Assembly (NCBI GenBank): GCA_028356125.1
Contig: JAOMTZ010000003.1
Coordinates: 25,557 to 89,556 of the forward strand
Length of the DNA stretch: 64,000 nucleotides
Source of the DNA: Candidatus Poseidoniaceae archaeon
GTDB taxonomy: Archaea > Thermoplasmatota > Poseidoniia > Poseidoniales > Poseidoniaceae
Reading direction: 5' to 3'
Part shown: piece after piece, positions 22,070 through 29,716 of the stretch
Layout of the letters: every line of letters begins with the position of its first letter
Numbering within the stretch: position 1 is the first letter of the stretch
Translations under genes and position numbers: made by a program
Notes under the pieces: generated by a model
Databases searched by the model: none
Seen by the model: the letters and a program-made list of their open reading frames with translations, nothing else
Told to the model about the DNA's origin: nothing

Positions 22070-22888
22070 ATGCTACCAGACGAAGGCCTCCTCAACTACG
22101 TCCTCGACCGGAGTTATGGATGTAGACACATCACACTAATAGATCCAGGAAAACAATCTTCTGAGATTGCTACAAGAAGAGCCATTGCAGCGGTTAATTC
22201 AGGTTCAAGAATGATATTCGTTGGCGGTTCTACAGATACACCTGATGAAGTTGTACATGAAACATGCAAATCCATCCAAGAAGCCCTTGAATTACAAATA
22301 TTCGCAGCAAGTCAAGACCCAACTTCTGATGAGGATAAATGGAGAGTACCTGTTGTATTATTTCCGGGTGGCGCACACGCCCTTTCCCCTGCAGCAGACG
22401 GAATTACTTTCATGATGTTAATGAATTCACAAACCAGAAGATTCCTAGTTGGAGAACAACTTAGAGGAGCGCCACATCTTGAAAAATTTGGTGTTGAAGC
22501 TTTACCTACTGGCTACCTAGTCTTTTCACCAGGCGGTAAAGTAGGAGAAGTAGGAGAGGCTGAATTAGTAAAACCCGGTGAAACCGAATTGGTAAATTCG
22601 TATGCATTAACAGCGAAAATGTTTGGTTTCAAAATCCTATACCTTGAAGCTGGTAGCGGAGCATCAACTCAAGTAGACCCTTCATGTATTGAAGCAGCTA
22701 GAATTGTAAATGAGTTATGTTTAATCGTTGGAGGTGGGATTAGGAATGCAGAACAAGCCCGAATTGCAGCTAATGCTGGAGCAAATTGGATTGTTACTGG
22801 AACACTTACTGAAGACGCGTCTTCAATGGAAGAACTTAGTCAGAGAATCTCTGATGTAGTTTTAGGGGCTCAATCCTCGTCTTCGTAA
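22070..22888 (+). CDS. geranylgeranylglyceryl phosphate synthase (GGGPS/PcrB family)
   Basis: Motifs TLIDP, FVGGS, LFPG, YLEAGSG, VGGGIR. Confidence 0.9.
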   Translation: MLPDEGLLNYVLDRSYGCRHITLIDPGKQSSEIATRRAIAAVNSGSRMIFVGGSTDTPDEVVHETCKSIQEALELQIFAASQDPTSDEDKWRVPVVLFPGGAHALSPAADGITFMMLMNSQTRRFLVGEQLRGAPHLEKFGVEALPTGYLVFSPGGKVGEVGEAELVKPGETELVNSYALTAKMFGFKILYLEAGSGASTQVDPSCIEAARIVNELCLIVGGGIRNAEQARIAANAGANWIVTGTLTEDASSMEELSQRISDVVLGAQSSSS

Positions 22889-24138
22889 AGAACAGGGTCG
22901 CCTGTGCCACCTGGTGATTCAGGTCTTGGTGTTCTATCAACATCCATTCCCTTCTCTATTACTTCCAAAGCAGTATCAAGATCTACAGTGCCACCATCTG
23001 CGAGAGTATGCATATCTTCCATTTCAGGAGTAGAAATTGTTCTTTCATAGTCAGGAGAATTAGCATAAACTTCTTTCTTCAACTCCCTTTCGTCATGACT
23101 TCTAACCAACGAAAGTGAATCTGCAAATACCCTTCCAACTACCTCTCGGGTCCTTTCAGTTCTCTTTACTCCATCTAATTCATGAACGGCAGTATCTCTT
23201 TGTGATTCTAATTCTCTAACCTCAGAGGTTCTATCAGTTAGTGCAGCCTCTAAATCTCCAATGGTAAGAGCCATTTGTTGAACCCTTTCGTCTCTCTCGA
23301 AAACATCATTGTGTAATCTTCTCTCTCTTCTTCTCAGAGATTCATATTCTCTATTTCTTTCAAGGAGTCTACGTTTTAATTCTTCAATTTGCTCGACCAG
23401 GTAATCGTGTTCTGCAGAAACAGAACGAGGGCCTTGCATAACACGCTCAATCTGTTCTTCTAATTCTCCAAGGCGCTTGTCTCTAGCATCGAGGAGTCCT
23501 CGTAATCGATCTGCGATATCTCTGAGCCTCTGTCTCTCTTCTTCCAAAGCATCGTTAGCCGCTTTCTCAGCATCTAAATCTGCAGATAGAGAATCTGCTT
23601 GTGATTTCAAAGACCTTACTTCATCAGCAGTCACACTTGTCAATCCAGCGTCAGCAGCCCTTTCCAAAGCCTCAACCATCTGAGACATACGCCCTTCCAT
23701 TTCACCAATAACATCATCTTGTTGAGTGGTTAATTCTCTTAGTTGCATAGCTTCCTTCTCAAGAGAAGCACGCTCTTCTACAGATAAGCCAGATTTGCTT
23801 TCTGCCAACTCCTTTCTTGTATCCTCAAGTAACCTTTCAATATGAACGACTCTTGCACTAGATTCTTCCAAATCATTCTCAGCAGCACGTAATTGAGCGA
23901 GTTCAGGAGCAACAGAATCTTTCCTCTCTGCAAGATCTAATTCTAAAACACGAAGTCTCTGTTTTGAAGTAACTAAATCTTCATTCCTGTCTGCGAGCTC
24001 TTGCCATGCGACCAAGACCTCCTCAACCAGTTGATCAACAGGGTAAGCGCGTAGCATTCCCTCGAGTGCTGCACGCTCATCACCAGTCGTTTCAGTCATG
24101 CGACGAATGCCACCAGATGTCGAACCGCCGAGCGTCAT
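22870..24138 (-). CDS. long coiled-coil protein with acidic tail
   Basis: About 300 residues rich in E/R/L with heptad character; no Walker motifs; start uncertain. Confidence 0.75.
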   Translation of the reverse strand: MTLGGSTSGGIRRMTETTGDERAALEGMLRAYPVDQLVEEVLVAWQELADRNEDLVTSKQRLRVLELDLAERKDSVAPELAQLRAAENDLEESSARVVHIERLLEDTRKELAESKSGLSVEERASLEKEAMQLRELTTQQDDVIGEMEGRMSQMVEALERAADAGLTSVTADEVRSLKSQADSLSADLDAEKAANDALEEERQRLRDIADRLRGLLDARDKRLGELEEQIERVMQGPRSVSAEHDYLVEQIEELKRRLLERNREYESLRRRERRLHNDVFERDERVQQMALTIGDLEAALTDRTSEVRELESQRDTAVHELDGVKRTERTREVVGRVFADSLSLVRSHDERELKKEVYANSPDYERTISTPEMEDMHTLADGGTVDLDTALEVIEKGMDVDRTPRPESPGGTGDPVLYEDED

Positions 24139-24212
24139 TGCGCACAATCGTGCAACAACCATTCTTCAACCTTTCATTGGTCAAGGGGCTCTACGCCCCA
24201 TTTCTAAGACCC

Positions 24213-25217
24213 TTAGTTGATAGCGGTGTATTGCTCATCAGGCATGTCTTGAGCGAGTGCCATAGCGCCTGTAGCAACCTTTTCGATAGGGTCTTCAACA
24301 CAGGTTACAGTAACATCACCAATATCAGCGATGTCATTTGCAATTGCATCAGCGATTCCACCAATGAGTGATCCTCCGCCAGAGAGTATGATGTTGTTTC
24401 TGAGAATTGGTTGGTATTCAGGGTCTGCGGTAGCAACGATTGACTTGATTGCGGCTCCGACCTTTCCAACAACCATTGTACATGCAGCCTTGATTAGGTC
24501 TCCAATGTCAACAACTTGCTTCTTACCTTCAACAGATAATTCAACCATCTGTTCTTTGTCCTCTCCATCCACGTAAGAATATTCTTCTTTCCACTTGCGA
24601 ACCATGTCTTTTGTTACTTGCGCACCAGTGTACTTCTTCTGAACTAGTCCCATTAGTTGCATGTCGATCCAATCTCCAGCTTCCTGGATTGTAAGTTGGT
24701 CTTCTTCTGTTGGGAAGATTCCGTAAAGACGTGCGATGTCAGTTGTTCCTGCACCAATATCGACACAGATAGAACCAGATATTTCACCAATTCCGTATGC
24801 GGTAGCGAATGGTTCAGTAACTACCATGATGGCGTTTACCTGACCACGTAGTGTAGCCACAAGGTTGCTCTTATCTGTGAATGAAACGTGTGAAGGAGAG
24901 CAAATTACTCCAAACACTTCGTCGTATTCTTCAGGGCCAGCGGTTTCGATAAGGTGAGTTACGAAAGCCTTAGCAGCAGCCAGGTTTGCTTCATCATCTT
25001 GAGCAACACCAGCGGCCATTGGACGGTATAGGTTACATGCCAACTTGTTCTTTAGAGCATCATTACCGAATAAAACATCTCGGCCTAGGAAATTACGAGC
25101 AACAGGGTCCTTTGGTCTTCCAACAACCGTCTCGATTGTTTCAATCGAACCTGCGCTACTTGCGATAGTTGATTGGTATGTTCCCAAATCAATTCCAACA
25201 TAGAGTCTTTTTCCCAT
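24213..25217 (-). CDS. MamK/MreB-family actin-like ATPase
   Basis: Phosphate-1 IDLGTYQS, connect EPF, phosphate-2 VDIGAGTTD, adenosine SGGGS; GGTGA RBS upstream. Confidence 0.9.
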   Translation of the reverse strand: MGKRLYVGIDLGTYQSTIASSAGSIETIETVVGRPKDPVARNFLGRDVLFGNDALKNKLACNLYRPMAAGVAQDDEANLAAAKAFVTHLIETAGPEEYDEVFGVICSPSHVSFTDKSNLVATLRGQVNAIMVVTEPFATAYGIGEISGSICVDIGAGTTDIARLYGIFPTEEDQLTIQEAGDWIDMQLMGLVQKKYTGAQVTKDMVRKWKEEYSYVDGEDKEQMVELSVEGKKQVVDIGDLIKAACTMVVGKVGAAIKSIVATADPEYQPILRNNIILSGGGSLIGGIADAIANDIADIGDVTVTCVEDPIEKVATGAMALAQDMPDEQYTAIN

Positions 25218-25292
25218 AATCTCTCACCATTGTCCTTCGGACATTTCGCCCATAGAGTCACTTGACTTAATACTCACTCGCGCTTTTAGGCT

Positions 25293-27407
25293 CTATTCTT
25301 CCTCTCTGAAAGGCGATTTGACATCTTCTTGCCAATTAGCCCCACTTCCTCTAAACATTACACTGGCCGCTACTAAGGCCCCAATAATAACGCCCAGTAT
25401 TCCCCACAACAACGTATCATTTTGTTTATTTTCCATAATCTCCTCACCAGGCACCCGGACATCTGGCTCTACGAAGGCTGGATTTTCCCACCAAATAGTA
25501 AAATTTTCAGTCTGAAATTGGCTCATACTGTACCGAGTCCAGACAGATGAATTATCATCAACAGCCACGACTTCAAACCGCCAATCATGCCGATTCACCT
25601 TTCTTGGAATCAACTCTTTCGAAATATCTACAGAACAACTCGAATTGAAACTATAATTCATAGCAAGGGCACAATCTCCCAAATCGACAGAATAATTTTC
25701 GTTTGCTAAACGAATTGCAAGTACAACATTATCTTTTTCCAGATCCATTATTGACAACTCCAGGGTAATATTTTCGGTGTAATTCCCACCACCAACCGGC
25801 CCCGATAGCATAGTCAAAACAGGGCCGTTATTTGGTAACAATTCATGAACACCAATCACAGTCAAACCAAAGCCAACACTATCTCCTTCAATGCCTAACA
25901 TTCCTTCGGAACCACCATCAAATACAGATTTGGCAACAATTTCAATTTCTACCCAATCCACATCTTCTAATTGGGAAGATGAAAGCCTAACCATCACCGT
26001 TGTTTCGTTAGAAGATTCATGCTCTAAGGGAGAGAAGGCCGATTGGTAATACAATTGGCTATACCCGGAACTACTGAACTGATCGTCAACAGCAACCCTT
26101 CCGTCTGACGTTTTAACAAACAGTCGCAGATCATCAATATCGTATCCCATCGGCCTTGCATTGTAGGATAATGTTACTTCTAAATCTTCACCATTTACTG
26201 GCTTAACATACCGACTCCAGGAATCATTTTGTGATAAAAATGGACCCTTTGCCCCACTTCCATTCCACGGGTTATTTTTCATAGAATCTAAATCACCACC
26301 GCGGCCTTGAATAATTGAAACCCAATCATCTACTTCATATGAGTCATGAACAAAAAACGACGTATTGAACGATTCTAAGGAAGGACGACCGTATCCCTGA
26401 ATTGGATCGGGAGACATTCCAGTTACCGGTTCAGCAGAAGCAGCCAACATGGATTTTAACAATGGACCCGAAGGAGTAAAGCCGTATTTATTCTCAATCA
26501 TTTCTTGCAAAAGAGCAGTAAACGATGCAGCCATTGGAGTGGCCATCGAAGTTCCAGTCATCGAATATGTACCATTATTCATGCTAGTAGTAATTCCATC
26601 TGCTTTTGCAGAAAGAATATTCACTCCTGGGGAAGCAACGAATGTACCCCTCCTTCCATTAACATCAGGCCCGTGCGAACTACTTGGCCATATAGTTGCA
26701 TTTTGCTCTGAATTACTAGCTGCAACAGAGACCGCATTGTAAGCGTTCGACGGCTCTAACATCCCCCCTCCATTATTTCCGGGCGCGATAAAAATCAACG
26801 ACCAGGGATTTTCAACAGTCCATTCATCAATTAACCCACTTCTATTAGTGTAATTGATTGTATTATCTCCCCAAGACCATGAATTGATTACAGCACCATG
26901 TAGCGCTGCCTCAGCCAGTAAATTATCTACTTCCGGGGGGGACCACCCAGTCGAATCTACAATATCTTGAACTACAAGTCTAGAACCATATGACATCGAT
27001 TTGATATCTGAATTATTATCCAAAGGGTCGCAAGCAAGAATGCCTGCAACATGCGTTCCATGCCTGAACTGTTGGTGACCCTGAGTATCCCAATTATCAA
27101 TTGAATCATTCAAAGCAACAATTTTCCTATGATTTATGCCCGGTTCACCAACATCTGTTTCAGAATCTCTAAAGCAAGAATGATCCATGTCAATACCTGT
27201 GTCAGCAACAGCAATTATCACCCCAGTTCCGTTTAGATTATCCAAATCCATTTCTGACAACTCTTCGCCCCATTGCGGCTCTACTGACAAACTATCTGTA
27301 CCGGGGTCAGCGATGGATAAAGGGGTGATTATGATGAGTAATATCACCAAAGTTACCACTCGCATAGTCCTTCTAAAACCACATCCCGATTTAAGTTTCA
27401 TACACAT
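25293..27407 (-). CDS. S8 subtilisin-like serine peptidase, secreted and C-terminally anchored
   Basis: Catalytic triad motifs VADTGID, HGTHVAG, GTSMATP; signal peptide and C-terminal TM. Confidence 0.92.
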   Translation of the reverse strand: MCMKLKSGCGFRRTMRVVTLVILLIIITPLSIADPGTDSLSVEPQWGEELSEMDLDNLNGTGVIIAVADTGIDMDHSCFRDSETDVGEPGINHRKIVALNDSIDNWDTQGHQQFRHGTHVAGILACDPLDNNSDIKSMSYGSRLVVQDIVDSTGWSPPEVDNLLAEAALHGAVINSWSWGDNTINYTNRSGLIDEWTVENPWSLIFIAPGNNGGGMLEPSNAYNAVSVAASNSEQNATIWPSSSHGPDVNGRRGTFVASPGVNILSAKADGITTSMNNGTYSMTGTSMATPMAASFTALLQEMIENKYGFTPSGPLLKSMLAASAEPVTGMSPDPIQGYGRPSLESFNTSFFVHDSYEVDDWVSIIQGRGGDLDSMKNNPWNGSGAKGPFLSQNDSWSRYVKPVNGEDLEVTLSYNARPMGYDIDDLRLFVKTSDGRVAVDDQFSSSGYSQLYYQSAFSPLEHESSNETTVMVRLSSSQLEDVDWVEIEIVAKSVFDGGSEGMLGIEGDSVGFGLTVIGVHELLPNNGPVLTMLSGPVGGGNYTENITLELSIMDLEKDNVVLAIRLANENYSVDLGDCALAMNYSFNSSCSVDISKELIPRKVNRHDWRFEVVAVDDNSSVWTRYSMSQFQTENFTIWWENPAFVEPDVRVPGEEIMENKQNDTLLWGILGVIIGALVAASVMFRGSGANWQEDVKSPFREEE

Positions 27408-27454: not shown

Positions 27455-27727
27455 ATGCAAGCCTTCCGCGTATCCGGCACAGCACCTTTTGGTAGCCAAC
27501 GACAGAAGTTCAATCTAGACCTTGTAGCATCATCTGCTGCAGACGCAGAGCATCGCTGTTACTCGATTATAGGCTCACGCCACAAGGCAAACCGCCGCGC
27601 AATCACCATCGAGTCTATTTCTGAAATCGATCCTAGGACCTCTTCAGAACCACGAATTCTAGACGCTTTCCGCGATCAAATCGCAGCATCAGGTGGCAAA
27701 ATAGCCCCAGTTGCAGAGGAAGAATGA
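27455..27727 (+). CDS. rpl18a: 50S ribosomal protein L18Ae/LX (eL20)
   Basis: Motif YSIIGSRHKANRRAITIESI; conserved position upstream of pfdA-ftsY. Confidence 0.88.
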   Translation: MQAFRVSGTAPFGSQRQKFNLDLVASSAADAEHRCYSIIGSRHKANRRAITIESISEIDPRTSSEPRILDAFRDQIAASGGKIAPVAEEE

Positions 27728-27781
27728 ACGCCGACAATCGTCGGGTTCTTGACGGAGAGCCTTCTCCCACTAGGTGAGAGC

Positions 27782-28294
27782 ATGGTTGATTCAAACGAAC
27801 TTCAGAGAATGGCTCGACTTGTAGATATGAACAGGCAGCGCCTAGAAGAGATACAATCTCAGATTGATCGTATCGAAGCAGTTCAACTAGAACATGACGA
27901 TACCAGGCATGCCCTGAAAGCGCTATCTAACGGTTCCAGTGGTCACATTCCACTTGGGGCAGGAGTCATGGTGCCTATTCCCAAAAACGCAACAACAGTA
28001 GTTGATTTAGGTAGCGGCATCTTTGGAGAAAGGTCGCCAGATGACGCCGAAGAATTGGTTACTAAAAGGCTGAATGATTTGTCTGAACTCAAATCCCAAT
28101 TCGAAGCGGACGCAGCAGTACTGACGCAAAGAATTGAAGAACTGTCAACTACTTTTGAAAGAGCTGCTAAGGAAATGACAGAGCAAAACACACCAGTTCC
28201 TGAAGAGCCACTAGGCACCCCTGATACCACACCCGAGGCCACACCAAGGCGTAGGAGAAGAGGGATGGGCGGCGAATTAACTCTTGATGATTAG
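27782..28294 (+). CDS. pfdA: prefoldin alpha subunit
   Basis: Coiled coil, IPLGAGVMV, VVDLGSGIFGE, coiled coil; start refined to MVDSNEL. Confidence 0.88.
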   Translation: MVDSNELQRMARLVDMNRQRLEEIQSQIDRIEAVQLEHDDTRHALKALSNGSSGHIPLGAGVMVPIPKNATTVVDLGSGIFGERSPDDAEELVTKRLNDLSELKSQFEADAAVLTQRIEELSTTFERAAKEMTEQNTPVPEEPLGTPDTTPEATPRRRRRGMGGELTLDD

Positions 28295-28303
28295 GTGTTA
28301 GAA

Positions 28304-29716
28304 ATGGGACTCTTTGATAAATTTAGAAAAAAGGTACAGGTCGCAGCATCTGAGGCAGACACAGAATCTCTATCAGCTGAAGCGGGTTCTGACGAAGCAA
28401 TAGAAGCGATAAGCCAACACCAAGAAATTCCAAACCTTAGCAACATTCAACCGTCATCAAATACAGACGAGTTATCTGTAACTGAGGAAGATGAATGGGA
28501 AGAATTTGACGATGAAGAGGAACTAGAACTTCCTTCAGCGAATGATGACGAATGGGAAGATTTCGATGAAGAAGAAGACTACTCACTCCCAACCAAATTA
28601 ACCCGAAAAGAAAAGAAAATTCTCGCCAAGAACACCAAGCGCGAAAAAGCCAAGAAAAAAACCGATGCCAAGCAGCGGAAAAAAAGAGGCGGAAAAGAAG
28701 TAGAGAGGCTTGCAGGCTCAAAGGTAGACCTTCACATGATGAGAACCACCACCGGGCGGCAATTAGTTGAAGTTAAATCAGCACCTACTGGCGGCATAGG
28801 ATCTACTGATGAAGACGGCATAACCATCGATTTAGGAGGTGGCGTTGTAGAGGCGGGCGGCCGTGTAATCAAGGATAGCGAGGCTCTAAGCAATTTAATG
28901 GAAGAGCTAGAATGGATCATGCTCGAATCCGATATCTCATCAGATGCAGTATCTGCAGTAATGAATGCTCTTCGTAAGAATCTCATAGGACAGAGATTAC
29001 GTAAAGGTGCAGATGTAGCTAAAGTTCTTGAAGCAAGTCTGAAAAGGGCACTAAGAGGAATTCTAAAATCAGGTTACTGGGATTTCTACGAGAGTATCCA
29101 GAGTTTTATCGACAAGAAAGACACCCCTGTAGTAATCATGTTTGTTGGCGTAAACGGCACAGGAAAAACAACTACTGTGGCGAAGATAGCACATCTCCTA
29201 AAACAGCGAGGACATTCTGTAATCGCTGCAGCAGGGGACACTTTCAGAGCCGGAGCAATCGAACAACTAGAAACACACTGTGAGAGGTTAGACATCCGGT
29301 GTATCTCTTCTCAACGCGGAGGAGATTCTGCAGCAATAGCAAGAGATGCAGTTGATTCAGCCAAAGCAAAAGGAATTGATGTAGTATTAGTTGATACGGC
29401 AGGAAGAATGCAAAACAAATCTAATTTAATGGCGGAATTAGAAAAAGTCAGAAGAGTTGCAAACCCCCACCTAACATTATTCGTTGGAGATGCATTGGCT
29501 GGTAACGATGCAGTCGACCAGGCCAAAAACTTCCAAGAAATGCTCAAATTCGACGGAGCAGTTCTCACAAAACTGGATACTGATGCAAAGGGCGGAGCCG
29601 GACTTTCTATTGCTCATGCAACGGGCCGACCAATCGTTTTATGCGGCGTTGGACAAGAATACGATGACCTAATACAGTTTGATCCAGACTGGCTTTTACA
29701 ACAACTATTCGAGTGA
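28304..29716 (+). CDS. ftsY: SRP receptor FtsY with acidic N-terminal region
   Basis: Motifs GVNGTGKTTT, DTFRAGA, DTAGR, TKLD, GVGQ. Confidence 0.95.
   Translation: MGLFDKFRKKVQVAASEADTESLSAEAGSDEAIEAISQHQEIPNLSNIQPSSNTDELSVTEEDEWEEFDDEEELELPSANDDEWEDFDEEEDYSLPTKLTRKEKKILAKNTKREKAKKKTDAKQRKKRGGKEVERLAGSKVDLHMMRTTTGRQLVEVKSAPTGGIGSTDEDGITIDLGGGVVEAGGRVIKDSEALSNLMEELEWIMLESDISSDAVSAVMNALRKNLIGQRLRKGADVAKVLEASLKRALRGILKSGYWDFYESIQSFIDKKDTPVVIMFVGVNGTGKTTTVAKIAHLLKQRGHSVIAAAGDTFRAGAIEQLETHCERLDIRCISSQRGGDSAAIARDAVDSAKAKGIDVVLVDTAGRMQNKSNLMAELEKVRRVANPHLTLFVGDALAGNDAVDQAKNFQEMLKFDGAVLTKLDTDAKGGAGLSIAHATGRPIVLCGVGQEYDDLIQFDPDWLLQQLFE

Follow-up and report, generated by a model that had tools for sequence, protein, structure and literature searches.

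We analyzed a 64,000-nucleotide stretch of DNA from a Candidatus Poseidoniaceae archaeon (contig JAOMTZ010000003.1 of assembly GCA_028356125.1, positions 25,557 to 89,556), hereafter the window, and studied two adjacent, co-oriented genes on its minus strand: one for a MamK-like actin, here termed actin A, and one for a long coiled-coil protein, here termed CC. Our analysis suggests that this locus rather likely constitutes a two-part cytoskeletal module specific to the Poseidoniales (Marine Group II). We hold the functional pairing of actin A with CC to be likely to the same degree, and place less confidence in any specific mechanism by which CC might act as an adaptor. Coordinates are those of the window unless a contig or locus is named, and the features of the pair are the following:

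24213-25217, minus strand: actin A, a 334-residue MamK-family actin-like ATPase, paralog A of the Poseidoniales
22870-24138, minus strand: CC, 422 residues from the conserved ATG (430 residues from the first in-frame ATG, at 24162)
23650-24081, minus strand: N-module of CC, residues 28-171 as numbered from ATG 24162
22870-23649, minus strand: C-module of CC, residues 172-430, with hinge 1, hinge 2, the invariant block, the motif RTREVV..F.D.L and the acidic tail
23284-23433, minus strand: near-invariant Arg-rich block of CC (GPRSVSAEHDYLVEQIEELKRRLLERNREYESLRRRERRLHNDVFERDER, residues 244-293), from 17-21 aligned orthologs of both Poseidoniales families
22873-22914, minus strand: disordered C-terminal tail of CC, with PGG..P conserved and an acidic end (PGGTGDPVLYEDED); predicted local distance difference test (pLDDT) score <50
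24185-24199, minus strand: G+C-rich hairpin, GGGGC-GTAGA-GCCCC, 13 nucleotides past the actin A stop codon
24159-24175, minus strand: box upstream of CC, here GAAAGGTTGAAGAATGG (consensus GTGAAGGTTCAAGARTGG)
25257-25273, minus strand: box upstream of actin A, degenerate in the window's genus (GTATTAAGTCAAGTGAC) and GTGAACCTT(G/C)AA in other genera

The strongest link between the two genes lies in their distribution, which we charted across 301 Thermoplasmatota genomes, 237 of them from outside the Poseidoniales. Actin A is coded by 49 Poseidoniales genomes, with its orthologs being 68-96% identical across the order, and nearly all of these genomes also possess a second paralog, B. A profile search recovered full-length CC in every genome with actin A (49/49, with the gene truncated in G270 and G297 where the contigs end) and in none of the 252 other genomes, neither in the 237 non-Poseidoniales Thermoplasmatota nor in the sampled Poseidoniales that lack actin A. 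MamK-like relatives are found elsewhere in the sample in only 7 genomes, at 36-43% identity. Neither paralog is present in the small-genome genera of Marine Group IIb (MGIIb; g9-g12 and g14) or in the sister family f3. A preliminary description of this DNA, made from the sequence alone, had proposed a filament with a scaffold or adaptor and named conservation of the gene pair across the Poseidoniales as a check; the pair is indeed conserved, with actin A and CC co-oriented and adjacent downstream of a gene for an S8 peptidase (S8 -> actin A -> CC) in 20/20 loci from both families of the order. The gap between actin A and CC is 42-104 nucleotides in 19 of these 20 loci; in L051 the open reading frames (ORFs), as called from the first start, overlap. 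In the window, the two ORFs lie in different reading frames.

The second line of evidence comes from the genomes without actin. At the syntenic site of the actin-less MGIIb genomes, the genes for S8 and actin A are deleted and the order reads L18Ae, a short ORF and GGGP synthase. This short ORF, of 143-164 residues, is collinear with residues ~30-170 of CC and ends right before hinge 1 (L072-L080, e.g., L072:5995-6462); it is the N-module of CC on its own. It is intact in five genera with 44-62% identity between genera, which indicates that it is still under selection. As the lost 3′ end of CC adjoins GGGP synthase and the lost actin gene lies at the 5′ side of CC, at least two separate deletions must have taken place. 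Paralog B and its upstream partner are likewise both missing from this clade.

Profile searches and phylogeny assign actin A to the MamK/BeeR superfamily, where it belongs to a separate clade; it is clearly no canonical MreB and, strictly speaking, no MamK either. Among the NCBIfam models, MamK (NF040964) matches it over its full length (positions 5-331) with 328.2 bits (E 5e-98), short of the curated cut-off of 400, followed by BeeR with 205 bits (cut-off 530), MreB with 56-75 bits, salactin with 34.3 bits (cut-off 400) and ParM with 16 bits (cut-off 417). The MreB models NF010539 (75.5 bits, cut-off 293) and TIGR00904 (62.6 bits, cut-off 366) both remain below their thresholds. The only MreB model that actin A passes is the broad Pfam MreB_Mbl (PF06723; 76.6 bits against a cut-off of 27); the Pfam salactin model (PF25229) is not reached (27.0 bits against 27.1), and Pfam Actin scores 40 bits. 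The database label "MreB" is explained by the lack of a MamK model in Pfam, where MreB_Mbl (77 bits) is the only family reported. A third MreB-family match in the source genome, on contig C21, proved to be DnaK. In a sequence search of the PDB, actin A retrieved MamK with E 3e-59, BeeR with 1e-36 and MreB with ~1e-12; its pairwise identity to MamK is 33%. The claim of the preliminary description that this protein resembles MamK more than MreB therefore stands, as do the places of both ORFs on the minus strand and the diagnostic segments it had quoted: LYVGIDLGT (5-13), VVGRPKD (31-37), EPFATAYG (135-142), VDIGAGTTD (152-160), PEYQPILRNNIILSGGGS (266-283) and VTCVEDP (304-310).

The phylogeny, which had been named as another check, agrees. 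In a maximum-likelihood tree with 106 sequences, MreB as the root and a single MamK reference (AMB-1), the Poseidoniales paralogs A (support 100/100) and B (100/100) form sister clades (97/99) outside MreB. Nearest to them are 14 long proteins from bacterial gene contexts with a C-terminal MamK-like domain (97/96), and next come the MamK-like proteins of other Thermoplasmatota (93/84). The MamK of Magnetospirillum and BeeR fall outside the 45-row clade that holds A and B, the fused bacterial proteins and the Thermoplasmatota proteins.

An AlphaFold2 model of actin A built on a 30-sequence alignment (pLDDT 92, predicted template modelling score 0.88) has as its top Foldseek match the protomer of the MamK filament (5ljv_A), with template modelling (TM) scores of 0.93/0.96 and a root mean square deviation of 1.6 Å. 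This polymerized form fits the model better than the non-polymerizing MamK monomer 5ljw or BeeR (TM 0.88). The catalytic residues E143 and D161 of MamK align with E135 and D153 of actin A. MamK polymerizes in an ATP-dependent manner into double-stranded, non-staggered filaments, and the change A278D stops this; the counterpart of this position in actin A is P270, an uncharged residue. Actin A starts just 4 residues before LYVGIDLGT and has no disordered N-terminal extension of the BeeR type (30-50 residues). Actin A retains the phosphate-1, phosphate-2 and adenosine motifs intact, along with the conserved catalytic Glu and Asp, and its predicted fold matches the polymerized MamK protomer. On these grounds, it most likely polymerizes with ATP into MamK-like filaments, whose architecture is expected rather than established.

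The ORF of CC spans 22870-24162 when read from its first ATG and codes for 430 residues rich in Glu, Leu, Arg and Asp. The more likely start is the ATG at 24138 (M9), because this ATG (in the context M-T-L/M) is conserved across genera; the ATG at 24162 falls within a conserved box that is non-coding, and a stop codon closes the same frame in other genera. From the conserved ATG, CC has 422 residues and is separated from actin A by a spacer of 74 nucleotides, in line with the ~420 residues and ~75 base pairs given in the preliminary description, which had also correctly described a coiled-coil protein with an acidic tail and no ATPase motif.

The AlphaFold2 model of CC (pLDDT 78) is ~90% helical, with predicted helices at residues 26-38, 42-125, 128-171, 179-242 and 249-368, the last being 120 residues long and followed by a small β-α-β element and a disordered tail. 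The two helix breaks coincide with the invariant motifs AGLTSVT (172-178, hinge 1) and QGPRSV (243-248, hinge 2). When 17 orthologs are aligned, 105 columns prove invariant, and the 50-residue near-invariant block contributes to these; among the conserved parts are GPRSVSAEHDYLVEQIEELKRRLLERNREYESLRRRERRLH..VFERDER, RTREVV..F.D.L and the terminal PGG..P with acidic residues. In the tail, P417, G418, G419 and P423 are invariant, and the protein ends in DPVLYEDED. Judged from this pattern of conservation, CC is a specific protein family rather than a generic or low-complexity coiled coil. Profile searches of Pfam, NCBIfam and the PDB yielded no relatives beyond weak generic coiled-coil matches, and Foldseek with the CC model returned nothing meaningful.

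The database label "chromosome segregation ATPase" was considered and rejected: CC has no Walker A motif, and its matches to SMC models, confined to coiled-coil segments, reach 31-34 bits where the cut-offs are 567 and 729. A precomputed PF24161 label on CC homologs refers to CCDC39, a generic eukaryotic coiled-coil family, and was not reproduced in our scans. In one genome (G279), the CC gene (C90:1486-2634) carries an in-frame TAA and may be a pseudogene or reflect a sequencing error.

A third line of evidence is a 12-nucleotide box, GTGAA-SS-TT-SAA, that is common to the regions upstream of both genes. Before CC, the consensus box begins 30-40 nucleotides ahead of the conserved ATG in all loci and lineages, with the exact sequence GTGAAGGTTCAA in G005, G017 and G258; before actin A, the related box lies 55-65 nucleotides ahead of the start in most genera. 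Each genome contains 4-8 matches to the pattern GTGAASSTTSAA, compared to 2-5 for a reversed control, and one of the matches is always located upstream of actin A. The copies upstream of actin A and CC account for 2 of only 4-6 box matches genome-wide in G005 and G017, and most of the 20 other matches that we inspected fall inside genes. The short upstream box does not resemble a TATA box. A hairpin of differing sequence occurs at the same place after the actin A stop codon in most of the 17 loci that were folded, and might act as a partial terminator or a 3′ stabilizer. This arrangement may reflect two separate units of transcription that share a common control, or else a single attenuated unit. 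Actin A and CC appear to be co-regulated through the shared box, with the hairpin probably lowering the expression of CC relative to actin. Together with the loss of the C-module in the actin-less clade, the shared box lends the filament and scaffold or adaptor pair further support as a candidate.

Several observations weigh against this reading. First, the adjacency of actin A and CC is weak evidence by itself, because the entire neighborhood of ~10 kb is syntenic: the genes for L18Ae, prefoldin, FtsY, GGGP synthase (PcrB), ferredoxin and the β-CASP nuclease are equally kept in order across the Poseidoniales. Second, the actin-less MGIIb genomes are monophyletic (100 by the Shimodaira-Hasegawa-like approximate likelihood ratio test in a tree of β-CASP and PcrB), which makes the co-loss a single lineage-level episode rather than a repeated one; these genomes are streamlined (1.3-1.6 Mb compared to 1.8-2.2 Mb elsewhere) and have probably lost many unrelated genes as well. 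Third, the intervening hairpin, as well as the presence of a box before each gene, suggests separate transcripts, and in the window's own genus both boxes are degenerate, with box counts in its own genome near chance. Fourth, we could detect no homology between CC and any known partner of an actin, and an attempt to relate it to the N-terminal extensions of the fused bacterial relatives (hhalign probability 1%, nothing by BLAST) or to the partners of MamK-like proteins in other Thermoplasmatota (BLAST E >0.01; a different family) failed. Finally, filament formation and the direct interaction of actin A with CC are both inferences on our part.

The synteny, the single lineage with small genomes, the hairpin with a separate upstream box between the two genes, and the capacity of the N-module to function without any actin would all be accommodated if the two genes were neighbors only. 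Actin A would then form a filament and CC would be an independent coiled-coil protein, such as an intermediate-filament-like scaffold or a factor in division or segregation, with the adjacency being mere synteny and the truncation a product of genome reduction. We regard this as unlikely, though it is the alternative that survives best. It leaves unaccounted for the perfect co-occurrence of full-length CC with actin A, the presence of the same rare 12-nucleotide box before both genes, and the module-specific nature of the loss, for which the deletion has its limit precisely at hinge 1 and is not contiguous with that of the actin gene.

The next alternative brings in the genes upstream of the pair, which are:

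25293-27407, minus strand: S8 subtilase, co-oriented with and upstream of actin A, 704 residues (Pfam Peptidase_S8, E 1.7e-32), with a signal peptide, a C-terminal transmembrane anchor and a short acidic cytoplasmic tail
27455-29716, divergent and upstream of the S8 gene: the L18Ae / prefoldin alpha / FtsY cluster, a classic archaeal cluster syntenic across the order

The surroundings of the locus comprise the S8 protease and the genes for ribosomal protein L18Ae, prefoldin, FtsY, GGGP synthase, ferredoxin and the β-CASP nuclease. In line with the earlier statement that no mreC/mreD or magnetosome genes are nearby, the neighbors are housekeeping genes and S8. MreC was not found in the source genome, which is 65% complete, and magnetosome genes are absent from beside the locus, with no genome-wide search for mam genes having been made. 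The constant order of S8, actin A and CC, and the joint deletion of S8 and actin A in the streamlined clade, raise the prospect of a three-part system, in which filament and adaptor would position or cluster the membrane-anchored extracellular S8, or its zone of the envelope, through the acidic cytoplasmic tail. The C-terminal transmembrane helix and tail of S8 (25293-25400) have an acidic end in most genera (..PPF.EEE, ..ENE, ..DDDE), and the invariant Arg-rich block of CC could bind such tails. However, S8 is poorly conserved, with 33-59% identity outside the genus, and its length ranges from 408 to 1140 residues by first-start calls, of which the shortest are broken or partial and some of the longest over-extended upstream; the acidic end is missing in several lineages, and a contiguous deletion of two genes requires no functional link. 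We therefore consider a three-part system improbable.

Least probable of all, in our view, is DNA segregation of the ParMRC type, in which actin A would move chromosomes or an extrachromosomal element and CC would bind DNA through its strongly basic, invariant Arg-rich stretch: actin-like filaments with adaptors do segregate DNA in bacteria, and salactin, a MamK relative, is implicated in DNA partitioning in Halobacterium (PMC10746226), but 19-29 kb of the window around the locus contain no centromere-like arrays of tandem or direct repeats, the context is chromosomal housekeeping rather than a mobile element, the ParM model scores just 16 bits, and Pfam scans detected no DNA-binding domain in CC.

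The pairing of a MamK-like actin with a dedicated non-enzymatic partner is a recurring arrangement, although the partners in the other instances are unrelated to CC. In the source genome, paralog B (C5:25192-26229, outside the window) codes for a protein of 345 residues that is ~46-47% identical to actin A. It is always accompanied by an upstream, co-oriented gene for a 336-residue protein with zinc ribbons at both ends (C5:25192-27325; L063-L068), and in 32 genomes the presence or absence of one goes along with that of the other. No homology was detected between CC and this zinc-ribbon partner. In one closed genome, paralog B is split into two frames (G037:C1:1175450-1176444) and may be a pseudogene or reflect a sequencing error. 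In other Thermoplasmatota, a MamK-like gene is followed by a co-oriented gene for a charged partner of a different family (L054:4579-5868 on the minus strand, L055:7206-9062 on the plus strand and L056:161-1831 on the minus strand), featuring a globular N-terminal domain of ~250 residues without a Pfam match and a tail that is coiled-coil or of low complexity and rich in Pro and Gln. A shorter relative of this partner occurs in one family, where it and the actin are encoded within a chemotaxis (che) operon (L058:7017-8042, plus strand; L060:5019-5975, minus strand), the other genes of which we read as coding for CheA, a CheD-like and a CheC-like protein.

The fused relatives comprise 14 proteins of 523-1232 residues (P0243-P0258, e.g., L069:8001-10364), which are assigned to bacteria on the strength of a gene context with UvrC, D-Ala-D-Ala ligase and an M23 peptidase. 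They start with a coiled coil at the N-terminus, continue with a long acidic linker rich in PE and a basic patch, and have the MamK-like domain at the C-terminus; going by this layout, "adaptor" and actin appear to form a single fused chain in these proteins.

The MamK-like genes in che operons prompted us to consider a link to the archaellum or a polar cap. This was rejected, as g7, g8 and g16 have the actins without archaellin, and g14 has archaellin without the actins. The target of the system is not the archaellum, nor is it magnetosomes or wall synthesis of the MreB type.

We propose that CC is a lineage-specific helical rod of ~420 residues, predicted to consist of five helices, two invariant hinges and two modules, and that this rod is probably dimeric. 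Its C-module (~172-430), with the Arg-rich block and the acidic tail, would bind, bundle or regulate filaments of actin A. As the N-module (~28-171) persists by itself in lineages devoid of actin, its role would be independent of actin and might lie, for instance, in self-assembly or in docking to a cell structure. By analogy with MamJ and McaAB, the Mad coiled-coil proteins, the arcadins and ParR, CC might thus connect the filament to something else, either as an adaptor or as a scaffold.

A bolder version of this proposal, which we put forward tentatively and think rather less likely than the pairing itself, envisages a previously undescribed archaeal cytoskeleton with two filaments of MamK-like paralogs, A working with CC and B with the double zinc-ribbon protein. 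In it, CC would be a true adaptor, its C-module gripping the filament and its N-module docking to a structure that persists in lineages without both actins, and S8 would perhaps be a cargo.

If the two-part module is real, MamK-type filaments with dedicated adaptors are not peculiar to magnetotactic bacteria and would represent a general positioning device that reaches the archaea. Archaea of Marine Group II, of which none has ever been cultured, rank with the most abundant archaea in surface ocean waters; to our knowledge, nothing is known of their internal cell organization, and the locus points to an internal skeleton, so far unstudied, in these cells. Our searches of the available literature on archaeal MamK-like proteins, and on actin or MreB in Poseidoniales, Marine Group II and Thermoplasmatota, turned up no account of such a system. 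The loss of the CC C-module in the actin-less clade, the co-occurrence of the full-length pair and the rejection of the archaellum link appear to be new. The database labels on actin A and CC are both misleading; behind them stands a concrete pair of proteins, for which the actin-less clade with only the N-module provides a natural deletion series of the adaptor.

Among known systems, salactin and volactin of the Haloarchaea are, like actin A, archaeal actins outside the MreB and crenactin groups, and the nearest family of salactin is MamK (PMC10746226). However, the salactin models (NF053533, PF25229) give actin A only 27-34 bits, and these proteins belong to other lineages and have no CC partner. 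BeeR of the Verrucomicrobiota (PDB 8r2n; PMC11929497) is a MamK relative of unknown function in non-magnetotactic hosts and, with the bit score and fold match given above, the second-best match of actin A in both family and fold; it illustrates that MamK relatives beyond magnetotactic bacteria can build quite different filaments (PMC11929497). Actin A differs in lying far below the BeeR cut-off (NF053558), in lacking the N-terminal extension and in forming a separate clade.

MamK of Magnetospirillum (PDB 5jyg, 5ljv, 5ljw) is the best family, PDB and fold match and agrees with actin A in length, nucleotide motifs and the catalytic Glu and Asp; in both, the actin gene adjoins one for a non-enzymatic partner with an acidic element. 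Actin A is set apart by its low identity to MamK, its score below the family cut-off, its separate clade, its archaeal host and a locus devoid of magnetosome genes. CC is a helical rod without similarity to MamJ, McaA or McaB, and the earlier analogy with MamJ accordingly holds for the role alone and not for the sequence; the acidic stretch of CC is just a short tail.

Two further systems offer functional parallels. Crenactin of Pyrobaculum, with arcadins 1-4, is an archaeal actin with lineage-specific partner genes alongside, one of which codes for a coiled-coil protein; crenactin belongs to the eukaryotic-actin type rather than being MamK-like, and searches against solved structures, as opposed to arcadin sequences, gave no relative of CC. 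Arcadin-2 binds crenactin by a C-terminal peptide (PMC5173319), a precedent for the docking of a C-terminal tail on an actin. The nearest known case in which a MamK-type actin works with coiled-coil partners comes from Desulfovibrio magneticus RS-1, where Mad20/23/25/26 form a network with MamK and Mad28, dedicated coiled-coil proteins being encoded together with actin-like ones (PMC12748827). This is a bacterial network at the service of magnetosome chains, and profile searches of Pfam and the PDB, as opposed to a direct comparison with its coiled-coil members, gave no relative of CC.

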